Positions 4,117 to 47,599 of a stretch of 64,000 nt of DNA are shown piece after piece; the first letter of the stretch is position 1, and each line of letters opens with the position of its first letter. The stretch is from Candidatus Marinacidobacterales bacterium (GTDB taxonomy: Bacteria; Acidobacteriota; Vicinamibacteria; Marinacidobacterales; SMYC01): assembly GCA_965224085.1 (NCBI GenBank), contig CBDCYI010000011.1, forward strand, positions 1,344,001 through 1,408,000. The letters run 5' to 3'. A model generated the notes under the pieces. That model worked only from the letters and a program-made list of their open reading frames with translations. It had not been told where the DNA came from and made no database searches. The translations under genes and the position numbers were made by a program.

Positions 4117-4210
4117 CTAGAACCGCAACTCAGACTCCCACAGCCGCAGCTTGTTTCCTAGAACCGCAGCTCATGCTACAAGAACCAGGCAGGAGCTCTA
4201 TCCGCAGGGC
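4117..4210. repeat. Degenerate ~20-bp-period repeats (core aaccgcagct)
   Basis: ctagaaccgcaactca at 4117-4132 and ctagaaccgcagctca at 4158-4173, with weaker copies near 4142, 4183 and 4200. Confidence 0.5.
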
Positions 4211-4494
4211 GCTCATCAACATCTCCGAGCTCCGCCGCGGGCCTGTCGATCCGAAAGACGTCTATTTCTTGGAACACTCTGGTCGTGCGGTAAAGACGCC
4301 CTCTGCGTGACACCGGATGGCAAGCGCTTTCGTGATGCTCTGGAGAGGGGATCCGAAAACGCCATCGCGGGCGGGAAAATCAACATCGACACCAACGCGC
4401 TCGAGGGAATGGACCGTCTCGATCCCAGCGACTAATCGTTCACGCCGAAAACGAACCTTACCACGGCCTCATGGGCGATTCGCCTGCGTATGTT

Positions 4495-4703
4495 CTTTTA
4501 GTTCAGCGTGAGCGGATCATCGCCAGTGGCTGGCCGCTCGCGAGAGCTCTAAGAAGCGGCCGAGTGGCTCACCTGAGGAAGAAGTTTTGGGGCCGGCACT
4601 TCTGGGCCCGAGGATATCTGGCGGTGACTCCTTTTAGTTCAGCGTGAGCTCGTACGGCATCATCGCCAGTGGCTGGCCGCTCGCGAGAGCTCTAAGAAGC
4701 GGC
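4495..4703. repeat. Direct repeat of the sppA 3' end (4495-4560 and 4631-4703) flanking an IS-derived insert
   Basis: cttttagttcagcgtgagc...atcatcgccagtggctggccgctcgcgagagctctaagaagcggc occurs twice; the left copy is 7 nt shorter internally. Confidence 0.93.
4567..4627 (+). mobile_element. 61-bp internal fragment of the IS200-type tnpA
   Basis: Identical to 45209-45269 and to the equivalent part of the second IS copy; encodes AHLRKKFWGRHFWARGYLAV. Confidence 0.93.
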
Positions 4704-6430
4704 GATCGACGGAGGAACTCCGTTGGCGAGAGCGCTCGTGCCGGGAGCTGCAACACGTCACGCGTCTGAATAAAGCTAGATAAAAGAGCCTCGAAGATAT
4801 TTTTCTTCTCCGGATAAATAACCAAAGCAACGCGATCCGTCGGATCGAGGTCGATTTTTTCCTTGGCAATGGCGATCGCGCGCTCGAGACCGCCGAGCTC
4901 GTCGACGAGCCCGTGCTCGAGGGCGGAGCGGCCCATCCACACGCGGCCTTGCGCCACGGCGTGGACTTCTTCCGTCGTTTTGCCTCGCGCCTCGGCGACT
5001 CTCTCGAGAAAAGCTTGATAGCCGGATTCGATCATCGTACGGAACTGCGCGCGCTCTTCAGGGGTGAAGCTCCGGTTGTCGCTAAAGAAGTCCGCATTGG
5101 CCGTGCTCGAGACGCCGTCGCGGGAGACGCCTACCTTCTCGTAGAGGCCGGACAAGTTGAACTTTCCGGCGTAGATCCCAATGGACCCGGTGATCGTTGT
5201 CGGTTCCGCCAAGATCGTGTCGGACGCCATCGCAATCCAATAGCCGCCCGAAGCCGCTACGTTGGCCATCGAAACGATGACGGGCTTTTTCTCGCGGGTG
5301 AGTTGGGCTTCGCGCCAAATTACATCGGAAGCCACGTCACTTCCGCCGGGGCTATCGATGCGGAAGATGACCGCGTCGATAGAGTCGTCTTCACGCACGG
5401 TCTTGAATGCGTCACCAATCGTGTCCGAGCCCATCACCCGGCCGAAGACAGAATCTTCGCGGTTGGTGCCGCCGACGATCGCTCCGACGCCGTAGATCAA
5501 CGCGACGCGTCCATCGACACTGAATGACGACCGGCGGCTGGCTTGGTAATAGTTTGCCACCGTCATCGTCTTCGGTTCTTCGCCCTCTTCGGCGAGCTTC
5601 GCGCGCACTTCGTCCATGTAGTGCAACCCGTTTACGAGACGATGCTCTATCGATTGCTCGGCTGTGAACGGTCCCGCAGCGATGAGGGCGTTCACTGCCG
5701 GCGGGTCGATGCCGCGGCCTTGCGCGATCGCGGTGATCATGGTTTCGTGGAGCGTGTCGACGACCTCGCCTATCGCTTCTCGGCTCGCCTCGCTCATGTT
5801 CTCGCGCAAGAACATGTCGGGCGCGTCCTTGTAATCACCGAACCGCTCGAACTCGGCTTCGACGCCGAGTTTGTCGAGCGCCGACTTCACGAACATCAGC
5901 TCTGCGCGCACGCCCCGCAGATCGATCATCCCGCGTGGATGGAGATAGATTTGATCCGCCGCTGAAGCGAGAAAGTAGTCGCGGTTTCCCGCATATTCGA
6001 TGAACGCAACGATCGCTTTGCCCGAGTTCTTGAAGTCGAGAAGCTGTCGGTGAAGCTCGAACATGTTCGCCCAACCGAGCCCAGTGCCGCGGACGTGCAA
6101 AAGGAGCTTCTCGATACGGGCGTCCTCTTTGGCGGTGCGCACCGCGAATAGAAGCTCGCGAAACGTGATGTCCTTGACTTCGACGAAGGGCCCGCTCATG
6201 TCGTAGAGCGGGTCTTCGGGGTAGGGGCGCGCGAGATCGATGCTCAAAGCCGTGCCGCTAGTGAGCGACGGCGCCCGAGGCCCCATGCTCCTGAAAAGCG
6301 CGTAGAAAGTCGCGGTAAGCAGGAACAACGTGCCCCCGGAAAAGATGACGAGCCACAACAGCCAGCTCGGCCGGCGCGCCCGCGGCTGCTCGGGCTCGGT
6401 ATACGGCCCCGGAGCTTCGGTTTCAATCAC
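4634..6430 (-). CDS. sppA: Signal peptide peptidase SppA, 67K type (protease IV)
   Basis: N-terminal TM; two S49 domains; RIDSPGG, AASGGYWIA, TITGSIG, QGRVWMG, GLVDELGG. Confidence 0.94.
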   Translation of the reverse strand: MIETEAPGPYTEPEQPRARRPSWLLWLVIFSGGTLFLLTATFYALFRSMGPRAPSLTSGTALSIDLARPYPEDPLYDMSGPFVEVKDITFRELLFAVRTAKEDARIEKLLLHVRGTGLGWANMFELHRQLLDFKNSGKAIVAFIEYAGNRDYFLASAADQIYLHPRGMIDLRGVRAELMFVKSALDKLGVEAEFERFGDYKDAPDMFLRENMSEASREAIGEVVDTLHETMITAIAQGRGIDPPAVNALIAAGPFTAEQSIEHRLVNGLHYMDEVRAKLAEEGEEPKTMTVANYYQASRRSSFSVDGRVALIYGVGAIVGGTNREDSVFGRVMGSDTIGDAFKTVREDDSIDAVIFRIDSPGGSDVASDVIWREAQLTREKKPVIVSMANVAASGGYWIAMASDTILAEPTTITGSIGIYAGKFNLSGLYEKVGVSRDGVSSTANADFFSDNRSFTPEERAQFRTMIESGYQAFLERVAEARGKTTEEVHAVAQGRVWMGRSALEHGLVDELGGLERAIAIAKEKIDLDPTDRVALVIYPEKKNIFEALLSSFIQTRDVLQLPARALSPTEFLRRSPLLRALASGQPLAMMPYELTLN

Positions 6431-44219: not shown

Positions 44220-44872
44220 CTAGAGCGACCCGTTGTCCCACGGGCCGGTGATGGCGAACGTGATCCCAGGAAACTGGATGTTCACAAACAGCCACCGTCC
44301 TTCTGGGCTGAAACACGCCCCCGCCCATTCCTTGTTCCGGAAGTTTCCGGAGAACCCGTTGACCTCGCCCGCGAGTACGACGTTATTTTTCGCGAAATCG
44401 AAGATGTTGCCGTTCCCGTCGAGACCTTTCATTCTTTGCACCGACTGCGCGCTGTCCTCACACAGGATGATGCCGCCTCGCGGGCTCACCGTCACGTTGT
44501 CGGGTGAATTGAGCACGTCGAATGAGCTCGAGGCGTAGACGAGTCGCAGCGTCTCGCGCCGCGGGTCGTACTCCCACAGCTGGCCTCGTCCGATCGGCCC
44601 GCCGTTGGTCGCCGTGAAGTAGACCGCGCCGCTGTCGTACCAAGCGCCCTCGAGCCTCCTGAACTGCGCCGCTCCCTGGTCGAAACCGTGCCGGTACACC
44701 CCGCGCTCGTCGGAAGTCCCGGGAGAGTGGAGTCTTTCCGGGTCGTCGATGGTGACCCACTCGACGTCGAGCACAGCGCCGATGTCGCCGCGGTCGCGCA
44801 GGTCGAAGCTCAACTTGCCTTCACCGCCGTACTGCACACCTGGACCCGGAAGCTCCTGTTCCATCCACACCT
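44220..44872 (-). pseudogene. phoX: PhoX (DUF839) alkaline phosphatase C-terminal fragment, truncated at the IS
   Basis: VEWVTIDDP, FRRLEG.W, VYFTAT.GG, SPDNVTVSP.GG..LCED, EWAGACFSP.G..LFVNIQ.PG.TFAITGPW; 5' part missing. Confidence 0.8.
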
Positions 44873-45403
44873 GGGATGGTCGAAACCCCTCGCCTTTAGG
44901 CGAAGAGAAGATCGTGGTATTGTGGTCGCGTGCGTCACTACAGGCACGGAGCGCGCACGAAAACGGACCTAAAAGCGCACATCGTTTGGATACCGAAATA
45001 TCGTAAAAAGGTTTTGATCGGTCCAGTAGCGGTTCGTGTGCGCGATCTGATTCGTCAGATCGCGATGGAACATGAGCTGCACATAATCTCGGGTAAGGTT
45101 GCACGCGACCACGTCCACGTGTTCGTATCCTACCGACCACACCAGGACCTGAGTACGATCGTGCAGTGGCTAAAAGGAATAAGCTCCCGAGTACTCCTTC
45201 AGGAGTTTGCTCACCTGAGGAAGAAGTTTTGGGGCCGGCACTTCTGGGCCCGAGGATATCTGGCGGTGAGTTCAGGAAGCATAACGGACGAGATGGTAAA
45301 GGAGTACATAGACTCCCAGGATGGCGAGCCTCTTCACGACGACAGTCAATTTCCAATTGACAGCCCTTGAAGCCACCGCCTTCTAGGCGGTGGTTGTTCA
45401 CTT
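44873..45403 (+). mobile_element. IS200/IS605 family element, tnpA only (copy 1)
   Basis: 531 bp shared with copy 2; left hairpin tcgcct-tt-aggcga; right hairpin ccaccgcct-tct-aggcggtgg followed by ttgttcac; true ends lie within a few bp of the shared limits. Confidence 0.93.
44930..45370 (+). CDS. tnpA: IS200-family Y1 (HUH) transposase
   Basis: HIVWIPKYR, DHVH (HUH), KG.SSR, FWARGY, catalytic Tyr in KEYI..Q. Confidence 0.96.
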   Translation: MRHYRHGARTKTDLKAHIVWIPKYRKKVLIGPVAVRVRDLIRQIAMEHELHIISGKVARDHVHVFVSYRPHQDLSTIVQWLKGISSRVLLQEFAHLRKKFWGRHFWARGYLAVSSGSITDEMVKEYIDSQDGEPLHDDSQFPIDSP

Positions 45404-45648
45404 CAATTACGGTTTGCACGAATGCTCGCTCTACAAGCATCGTGCCTCGCGTAACGCCGTGCTTCGCTCGATTCCTGCAAACCGCTATTAATTAGGTCGT
45501 TGAGAAAGTCGAAATGGTCACCTTCGCGAGGGCGGTGACCGTGATGAAATCCTCCACGGGATCCTCGATTTCTACAGCACGGCGGGCTCAGGTTCTGCAG
45601 CGGCTAATTCGTACGCCTCGATGACCACCAACGGACCCCGCCGTTTTT

Positions 45649-46679: not shown

Positions 46680-47054
46680 TTATTTATCTGCCTGTTGCTC
46701 CGCGAAATCTCCGAGGATTGGGAGCTTGAACATCTGGTGCTGAAACGCCTTTACGAAGCAGATGATCCAGACCACGAACATCACGAGCGGGAAAAACATG
46801 AGCACGATCCAGCCCAGGATCGGGATCGTCCCGAGCACCATGCTGATCCCCGTCGAGACGACAGCGAGCGCAATCGCCTGGATCGAGTGGAATCGCACGA
46901 AGCGATTCTTGTTGTACGGCTCGAGGACCAGCCAAACGATCGCGACGATCACGAGATAGGCGAGCGCTCCGGCAACGTTTTCGTCCAGACTGCCCACTTG
47001 CGCGGTTCCGGAGCTCGCGGCTTGCGGTGGTGGTGGTTCGGATGCCTTGCTCAT
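46680..47054 (-). CDS. DUF4870-like membrane protein
   Basis: NVAGALAY, FVRFHSIQA, IPILGW, FKLPILG. Confidence 0.85.
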   Translation of the reverse strand: MSKASEPPPPQAASSGTAQVGSLDENVAGALAYLVIVAIVWLVLEPYNKNRFVRFHSIQAIALAVVSTGISMVLGTIPILGWIVLMFFPLVMFVVWIICFVKAFQHQMFKLPILGDFAEQQADK

Positions 47055-47068
47055 TAGTGTCTCTTCCG

Positions 47069-47599
47069 GGGATGGTCGAAACCCCTCGCCTTTAGGCGAA
47101 GAGAAGATCGTGGTATTGTGGTCGCGTGCGTCACTACAGGCACGGAGCGCACACGAAAACGGACCTAAAAGCGCACATCGTTTGGATACCGAAATATCGT
47201 AAAAAGGTTTTGATCGGTCCAGTAGCGGTTCGTGTGCGCGATCTGATTCGTCAGATCGCGATGGAACATGAGCTGCACATAATCTCGGGTAAGGTTGCAC
47301 GCGACCACGTCCACGTGTTCGTATCCTACCGACCACACCAGGACCTGAGTACGATCGTGCAGTGGCTAAAAGGAATAAGCTCCCGAGTACTCCTTCAGGA
47401 GTTTGCTCACCTGAGGAAGAAGTTTTGGGGCCGGCACTTCTGGGCCCGAGGATATCTGGCGGTGAGTTCAGGAAGCATAACGGACGAGATGGTAAAGGAG
47501 TACATAGACTCCCAGGATGGCGAGCCTCTTCACGACGACAGTCAATTTCCAATTGACAGCCCTTGAAGCCACCGCCTTCTAGGCGGTGGTTGTTCACTT
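47069..47599 (+). mobile_element. IS200/IS605 family element, tnpA only (copy 2)
   Basis: Direct repeat of 44873-45403; one difference noticed (44955 g vs 47151 a). Confidence 0.93.
47126..47566 (+). CDS. tnpA: IS200-family Y1 (HUH) transposase
   Basis: As copy 1 except His instead of Arg at residue 9. Confidence 0.96.
   Translation: MRHYRHGAHTKTDLKAHIVWIPKYRKKVLIGPVAVRVRDLIRQIAMEHELHIISGKVARDHVHVFVSYRPHQDLSTIVQWLKGISSRVLLQEFAHLRKKFWGRHFWARGYLAVSSGSITDEMVKEYIDSQDGEPLHDDSQFPIDSP

Follow-up and report, generated by a model that had tools for sequence, protein, structure and literature searches.

The window analysed here is a stretch of 64,000 nucleotides (C11:1344001-1408000) from a 6.87-Mb genome assembly (G000) that consists of 12 contigs and has a GC content of 60%. 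Within it, the gene for signal peptide peptidase, sppA, occupies 4634..6430 on the minus strand and encodes an intact protein of 598 amino acids with a Peptidase_S49 domain (E 1e-77). A convergent open reading frame lies upstream in the window at 4151..4435 on the plus strand; its 94-amino-acid product matches no Pfam family, two genomes of the same genus (G001 and G004) conserve the end of the frame, and it is followed at 4472-4486 by a weak hairpin with a T-rich tail. Immediately 3' of sppA is an added block of 136 bases that combines a copy of the sppA end, a 61-base piece of an insertion sequence (IS), and short fillers. Both sppA and the reading frame at 4151..4435 are left unchanged by this patch.

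Read along the plus strand, the patch begins with A1 (4495..4560), an extra, error-bearing 66-nt copy of the 3' end of sppA including its stop region, delimited by sequence comparison. The 6-nt filler CGAGTG (4561..4566) separates A1 from an exact 61-nt internal IS piece (4567..4627, plus strand), likewise delimited by sequence comparison, and the 3-nt filler CTC (4628..4630) separates the IS piece from A2 (4631..4703, minus strand), the native 73-nt sppA 3' end with the last codons ...MMPYELTLN. A1 is 89% identical to A2 over 73 positions, with one mismatch and one gap of 7 nt: 4495-4513 matches 4631-4649 exactly (19 nt), 4516-4560 matches 4659-4703 exactly (45 nt), and the 7 nt absent from A1 correspond to window positions 4650-4656, which are present in A2. 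The sppA stop codon is at 4634-4636, and the 3 nt past the stop were duplicated along with the gene end in A2. The first-pass annotation had described a repeat-insert-repeat structure with 7 nt missing from the upstream copy, and the assembly bears this out, with the single mismatch in addition.

The IS piece is 100% identical to 45209-45269 and spells the tnpA codons for AHLRKKFWGRHFWARGYLAV, residues 85-104 of the 137-amino-acid translation. It corresponds to positions 352-412 of a 546-bp element and is oriented in the same direction as the TTAGTT motif discussed below. It includes neither the IS ends nor the end hairpins, in agreement with the earlier reading that no such hairpins occur in the insert and that ordinary whole-element IS200/IS605 transposition fails to explain it. 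The fillers at the two sppA junctions (6 nt and 3 nt) belong to neither adjoining block, and there is no direct microhomology. The AGTTCAG microhomology proposed earlier does exist, but it lies 8-9 nt from the junction rather than at it. The sequence GAGT also occurs in the IS, 3 nt ahead of the copied piece, and from this match the filler CGAGTG may be an error-laden extension of IS copying. Treating the fillers as IS micro-patches of 4-6 nt (CCGAGT/GAGT, GACTCC) was dropped, as matches this short cannot be told from chance. A plus-strand open reading frame at 4471-4647 (58 amino acids) reads through the IS piece in frame, has no family match, and was judged accidental.

The source element encodes only tnpA and is found in 34 full, near-identical copies of 546 bp, with partial matches at 13 further loci. 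Its product is a Y1 HUH transposase that matches Pfam Y1_Tnp with an E value of 2.5e-40 across profile positions 2-121 of 121. Besides the sppA patch, the 61-mer occurs exactly at 37 other places in the genome (38 exact copies in the assembly). Therefore, the earlier equation of the insert with tnpA at 45209-45269 holds for the identity of the sequence but not for that copy as a privileged donor. The copy in question (44870..45403, plus strand, with tnpA at ~44957-45370) is left-truncated, and lacks the first 12 nt; nearly all other copies start with TTAGTGTCTCTT. A full 546-bp copy at 47054..47599 (plus strand) served as the reference and has the configuration TTAG/TGTCTCTT...GTTCAC/TT, where slashes mark the element's boundaries.

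TTAG(T) directly precedes 32-33 of the 34 full copies, the base that follows ...GTTCACT is T in 31 of them, and their flanks show no direct repeats, and thus no target-site duplication. In a head-to-tail pair at C5:1919324-1920397, the second copy starts directly after the TTAG(T) retained by the first, which pins the IS boundary to within 1 nt and is expected if the TTAG target retained at the left end is re-used. From the flanks of the copies and this tandem pair we conclude that the IS inserts at TTAG/TT or, equivalently, TTAGT/T. IS200/IS605 elements are described as always inserting with their left end 3' of a tetra- or pentanucleotide (PMC5027513), and the source IS, which has a Y1 transposase, matches what is set out there for the family in its insertion at a fixed motif and its lack of target duplication. 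The right end of the IS forms a strong hairpin (-13 kcal/mol, z -4.47), while the small hairpins at the left end are no better than those of shuffled sequences (z -0.21). Orientation fits the local GC skew, taken as marking the lagging-strand template, in 22 of the 34 copies; the skew is weak, and the sppA patch falls on the non-fitting side of this comparison.

Several further features of the element and its surroundings were noted. Seven of the 34 copies share a tnpA frameshift variant with an extra T at IS position 292 (GGACC[T]TGAGTA), one copy has an internal deletion of 7 nt, and another of 5 nt. The element is 100% identical in the congener G002, where it has a single copy at that identity (G002:C1:606361-606907), and at 93-94% identity it also occurs in a different genus and in a different family of the order (G023:C8:49456-50000 and G010:C1:8009950-8010364). 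These identities suggest recent horizontal spread of the IS, with a burst only in G000. The copy at 44870-45403 lies between segments (44803-44873 and 45402-45494) that are ~1 kb apart in ~10 copies of another repeat, and therefore this locus has itself been rearranged. A ~135-bp repeat with tandem copies at C4:29310-29520 and C4:496138-496370 ends in ...GAGTTTCTTATTAGTT, which is also the left flank of several IS copies; the repeat therefore carries the IS target motif and attracts insertions. Elsewhere in the assembly, C10:1329-5178 is 99.8% identical to C9:741176-745025, one example of the small-contig counterparts of chromosomal regions that point to population heterogeneity in the source sample.

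The insertion preference of the element connects it to the patch. The hexamer TTAGTT is rare, with 240 occurrences on the two strands of the 6.87-Mb genome, and is present twice in the patch, at 4498..4503 and 4634..4639 (both on the plus strand), with A1 and A2 each starting 3 nt ahead of one copy. The second copy holds the sppA stop codon: the gene ends with AAC TAA on the minus strand, which, read on the plus strand, lies within cTTTTAGTTcag. The patch therefore sits on a perfect target site of the same IS from which its 61 bases derive, a coincidence that the first-pass annotation had missed. Its location at a gene end follows from the presence of the stop codon within the target motif. 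In A2, 7 nt of left flank are kept in the configuration of an empty site.

Comparison with related genomes established the direction of change. All four same-genus genomes (G001-G004, 89-93% identical in this region) have a single sppA end without an insert, and all four contain the 7 nt that are missing from A1. The reading frame at 4151..4435 is retained in G001 and G004, and by eye an intergenic stretch of G004 is homologous to window positions 4473-4494. Because the congeners have one sppA end and G004 has this intergenic match, the junction between 4494 and A1 is ancestral and the 136-nt block was added. From the single end in all four congeners and the exactness of the copied blocks, we infer that the patch is derived and recent. 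None of these comparisons draws on G027, a genome flagged as unpublished. The earlier suggestion of a templated insertion was borne out: the block is copied from elsewhere, its donor is intact, and it is absent in the ancestral state. Of the other features expected of a templated insertion, microhomology at the switch points is lacking, with AGTTCAG 8-9 nt away, and the public contigs provide no read-level proof of the junctions.

The patch has counterparts elsewhere in the genome. The whole genome was scanned by k-mers for direct repeats separated by 40-700 nt, and the spacers of the resulting 57 candidates were compared with the genome; eight candidates were inspected, and two proved to be mosaics with IS pieces, the sppA patch and a locus at C5:2269609. 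A third mosaic was found from the listing of all partial IS matches. The candidates at C4:29310 and C4:496138 were rejected as tandem copies of the ~135-bp repeat, and those at C5:1631065, C5:251676, and C11:1612277 lie inside other multi-copy elements. The candidate at C5:947508-947655 involves a different multi-copy IS (~29 matches), of which 43 nt from the interior recur 21 nt past the end of the element, and this may be a mosaic of the same kind made with another element.

The second mosaic (C5:2269609-2269698) consists, in order, of ...CTTTTTAG, a 41-nt copy of the right flank, IS positions ~456-470, IS positions 509-544, and the same 41 nt again. There is a 2-nt loss in the ~456-470 piece, TTAG precedes the flank copy, and the junction at the right end is canonical. 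This mosaic is at the end of a minus-strand gene with an ancestral stop codon that lay within the motif; the gene now ends in ...GRGQKEK before its stop, in place of an inferred ...QKEN. The third mosaic (C11:~1006880-1007100, minus orientation) contains five collinear IS pieces interleaved with flank copies. The pieces are, in order, IS positions 58-72, 207-218, 226-259, ~291-333 (with errors), and 360-438, and the flank material comprises 26 nt copied from the upstream flank, along with the target region for a second time (12+9 nt with an AC insertion). Its target, GGAATTAGTTGAACC, is 9 nt ahead of the stop codon of the host gene, which has a C-terminal zinc-ribbon-like motif with two Cys-x2-Cys pairs. 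Relative to G002, the gene also carries a 2-nt frameshift ~70 nt ahead of the target TTAGTT, and its zinc ribbon is no longer read in frame. The second and third mosaics are absent from G002, the closest congener, where the duplicated flank is single.

All three mosaics are at TTAGTT, contain IS pieces in the orientation of insertion, and duplicate flanking DNA. All three also have small errors in or beside the extra material: the 7-nt loss and mismatch of A1, the AC insertion, the 2-nt loss, and the 2-nt frameshift. Their position at gene ends follows from the motif, which contains TAG/TAA in a GC-rich genome. The first-pass annotation had allowed for a one-off repair scar if no similar structures existed elsewhere, and the two further mosaics remove that premise. 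Among seven truncated IS copies examined in G002, G003, G010, and G021, none had a flank duplication, and hence the mosaics are seen only in this assembly.

The first-pass annotation had also proposed that the patch has a function, with the IS piece in the sppA 3' untranslated region (UTR) acting as a trans antisense RNA, or as a spacer-like memory, that silences tnpA. An sppA read-through transcript would indeed be antisense to tnpA, no minus-strand site resembling a terminator is predicted from the sppA stop codon to the IS piece, antisense control of IS200 tnpA is described for art200 in Salmonella (PMC4513863), and the two further mosaics add IS-piece structures at gene ends. We nonetheless consider a functional capture highly improbable. 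The insert is absent from all four congeners and from the contigs of the four public sequencing runs described below, so it is neither conserved nor fixed, and the stop codon inside the target motif already accounts for the position at gene ends. The piece would pair with codons 85-104 in the middle of the coding sequence, and not with a 5' UTR or ribosome-binding site as art200 does, and a single-copy 3' UTR would have to act on ~35 tnpA loci. The three mosaics hold different IS segments, with those of the third inside a frameshifted gene end. No Rfam family matches the piece; a search of 4200-5000 gave only a sub-threshold c-di-GMP-I match at 4924-4994 in sppA (17.9 bits against a gathering threshold of 35), which we put down to chance. 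Folded as RNA, the 3' region of sppA forms a stable structure (z -2.57), owing mostly to an imperfect palindrome present in both A copies. With regard to spacer-like memory, the three mosaics share no common repeat unit and form no CRISPR-like array, and each "repeat" is the mosaic's own local flank. Judged from the sequence comparisons, the proposed silencer and the spacer-like capture are unsupported.

We also searched public sequencing runs with 39 sampled words and aligned the Logan contigs of four runs (X1, X2, X4, and X8, from three studies). Eight runs from three studies contain 0.64-0.69 of the words, and none exceeds 0.69. Because ~26% of the 31-mer start positions in the query cross joints specific to the patch, a share of 0.64-0.69 is about that of the empty-site form. 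In each of the four runs, a contig joins 4494 to 4631, skipping 136 positions (19 letters fit either side), and in three runs and on the main X2 contig no other letters differ over 4300-4494 and 4631-4886. No contig covers 4510-4551 in any of the four runs whose contigs join across the insert (zero depth), and the patch junctions are absent from the contigs of all four. Judged from contigs, in which rare variants are lost, and from runs that may or may not include the source of the assembly, every public sample with this locus has the empty site. The first-pass annotation had named a lack of reads across both junctions as the mark of an assembly chimera, and this lack applies as far as the public contigs go. 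Two RNA runs contain only 0.05 of the sampled words. JGI metagenome contigs gave no match to the A1/IS junction and equally none to the left flank and repeat start, and are uninformative.

Run X8 provides a direct view of the site as an IS target. There, a contig ends at 4502 and the assembly graph branches: one branch, with a depth of 5, enters the IS left end (GTCTCTTCCGGGGATGGTCGA), and the other, with a depth of 12.2, proceeds into sppA as an empty site. The sppA site is therefore a real landing site of the IS and is polymorphic for it in X8. Run X2 includes a diverged relative that differs at 8 of 86 letters and in which 1507 bases of other sequence separate the upstream reading frame from the sppA stop codon, from which it follows that the intergenic spot at 4436-4635 takes insertions in other strains too.

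These data bear on the possibility that the mosaic is a mis-consensus of the assembly at an IS-polymorphic site, where read classes from a mixed sample were merged into a chimera of flank overhangs from IS-less reads and left-over IS segments. The empty site is the only bridged form in the four public runs, the junction words are found in no run, and the site is polymorphic in X8. Such an artefact would also predict the locations of the mosaics, their orientation, and the collinearity of their IS pieces, along with their restriction to this assembly. Small contigs of the assembly (C1, C2, C7, C8, C10, and C12) are IS-rich, near-identical alternative versions of chromosomal regions. Moreover, the ratio of IS word depth to flank depth in the runs is ~68-118, compared with 38 exact assembled copies of the 61-mer, although word depths are not copy numbers and the ratio can suggest no more than weakly that some insertions are unassembled or polymorphic. 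Against an artefact, the assembly resolves all 34 full IS copies cleanly and with few indels, which indicates that it is generally accurate, and the junctions share no k-mers able to mislead a graph assembler. An internal IS piece followed by 7 nt of left flank is impossible to obtain by splicing IS-containing and IS-less reads, and in our judgement polishing with accurate reads anchored in the flanks would tend to put the 7 nt of A1 back. On balance we regard an assembly artefact as a serious possibility, somewhat short of probable.

The observations establish the anatomy of the patch, its derived state, its coincidence with the target site, the polymorphism of that site, and the existence of two sister mosaics. 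The reading that we prefer, to which we assign a probability of roughly one half, is that the patch is a recent, neutral mosaic scar of template switching linked to the activity of the IS, the most active IS200/IS605-family element of the genome, at its target. On this reading the patch is without function and leaves both sppA and the neighbouring frame as they were. While the target site was being replicated or repaired, with single-stranded DNA of the IS at hand, a nascent strand would copy the sppA end, jump onto the IS DNA for 61 nt, re-anneal a few bases upstream of the target, and copy the sppA end a second time. The product would be a 66-nt error-bearing copy, 6 nt, a 61-nt IS piece, and 3 nt ahead of the intact gene end. 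Such a process would resemble microhomology-mediated break-induced replication or fork stalling and template switching (MMBIR/FoSTeS), with several template changes and low-fidelity synthesis. The template would probably be either an excised single-stranded IS circle or an IS just excised under the nascent strand, and the latter would fit the second mosaic well. Both templates are compatible with descriptions in PMC5027513 of TnpA binding to replication forks and bringing the excised single-stranded circle to the target motif, and of insertion being drawn to stalled forks on the lagging-strand template.

Template switching is consistent with the strand polarity of the mosaics, which fits TnpA with the IS circle as template and contributes one bit of information per mosaic, and clustered small errors in the extra copies are what repair synthesis of low fidelity should leave. 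The mosaics cannot be products of whole-element transposition. An internal deletion of an inserted IS is likewise excluded as the origin: both target-region copies are in the empty-site configuration in the sppA patch and in the third mosaic. Against template switching, no public data show the patch, its junctions lack direct microhomology, the mosaics occur in this assembly only, and the weak GC-skew comparison places the patch on the non-fitting side.

The three mosaics might, in addition, be the footprints of abortive single-strand ("peel and paste") transposition. TnpA would hold the single-stranded IS circle at TTAG/TT on exposed template DNA, and a polymerase would occasionally switch between the target strand and the circle. 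The output would be internal IS pieces and duplicated flanks, in the orientation of insertion and without IS ends. We offer this account tentatively and consider it rather unlikely.

A different origin would be a random double-strand break behind sppA into which Ku/LigD-type non-homologous end joining (NHEJ) or microhomology-mediated end joining ligated a stray 61-bp IS piece. The genome encodes Ku (PF02735, 165 bits, C4:72726-73268), so that end joining could alternatively have completed the template-switch product, and the short fillers and lack of microhomology at the junctions suit such ligation. In Sinorhizobium, a chromosomal break has been shown to capture heterologous DNA in a manner that depends on NHEJ (PMC6379672). 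However, simple ligation leaves the 66-nt flank duplication unexplained, as well as the occurrence of all three mosaics at the rare TTAGTT in the orientation of insertion and the collinear, multi-piece pattern of the third. Capture by end joining as the sole origin therefore seems very unlikely to us.

Scars of template switching and templated insertion are already known as such. A full-text literature search, in which most matches were judged by abstract or listing, returned no case of an IS200/IS605 target motif at which the same element served as template for scars. If the patch and its two sisters are real, a highly active IS200-type element would leave more than clean insertions and would also cause small, error-prone templated rearrangements at its target motif. 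Since most occurrences of the motif in a genome of 60% GC are at stop codons, the regions reshaped would be gene ends and 3' UTRs. It would also provide a sequence signature of failed single-strand transposition that could be sought in other IS200/IS605-rich genomes. Were the abortive-transposition account true, the mosaics would represent a class of IS200/IS605-generated mutation that has not been described before, and the stop codon in the motif would lead to preferential remodelling of gene 3' ends. If the patch is an artefact, sites polymorphic for a short IS can be assembled as plausible "repeat-insert-repeat" modules that invite functional stories. In either case, reads and RNA data would be needed before the antisense silencer is taken any further.

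Models of MMBIR and FoSTeS come from the eukaryotic and E. coli literature. The sppA patch resembles the scars attributed to these processes in that a short segment was copied with its donor left intact, a local duplication was created in one lineage only, several joints fall within ~140 nt, and small errors accompany the joints. It differs from them in having fillers in place of microhomology, in lying at the target site of a transposon, and in having that same transposon as template. The "peel and paste" transposition of IS608 and ISDra2 is similar insofar as the patch sits on such a target, at which a public contig joins the IS left end. However, the patch has 61 internal bases and a flanking 66-nt duplication and no IS ends, a structure that canonical excision and integration, as far as they are described in PMC5027513, never yield. 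The NHEJ capture described by Dupuy et al. 2019 (PMC6379672) is comparable in that foreign or ectopic DNA fills a break in a homology-independent way, and Ku is present here; the ligated cassettes described there differ in having neither long flank duplications nor specificity for a transposon target. Finally, like art200 (PMC4513863), an RNA antisense to IS200 tnpA could in principle repress tnpA. In the account given there, art200 is conserved and lies within the IS, opposite the tnpA 5' UTR, whereas the piece at sppA matches the middle of the coding sequence, lies outside the IS, and is found in one assembly.
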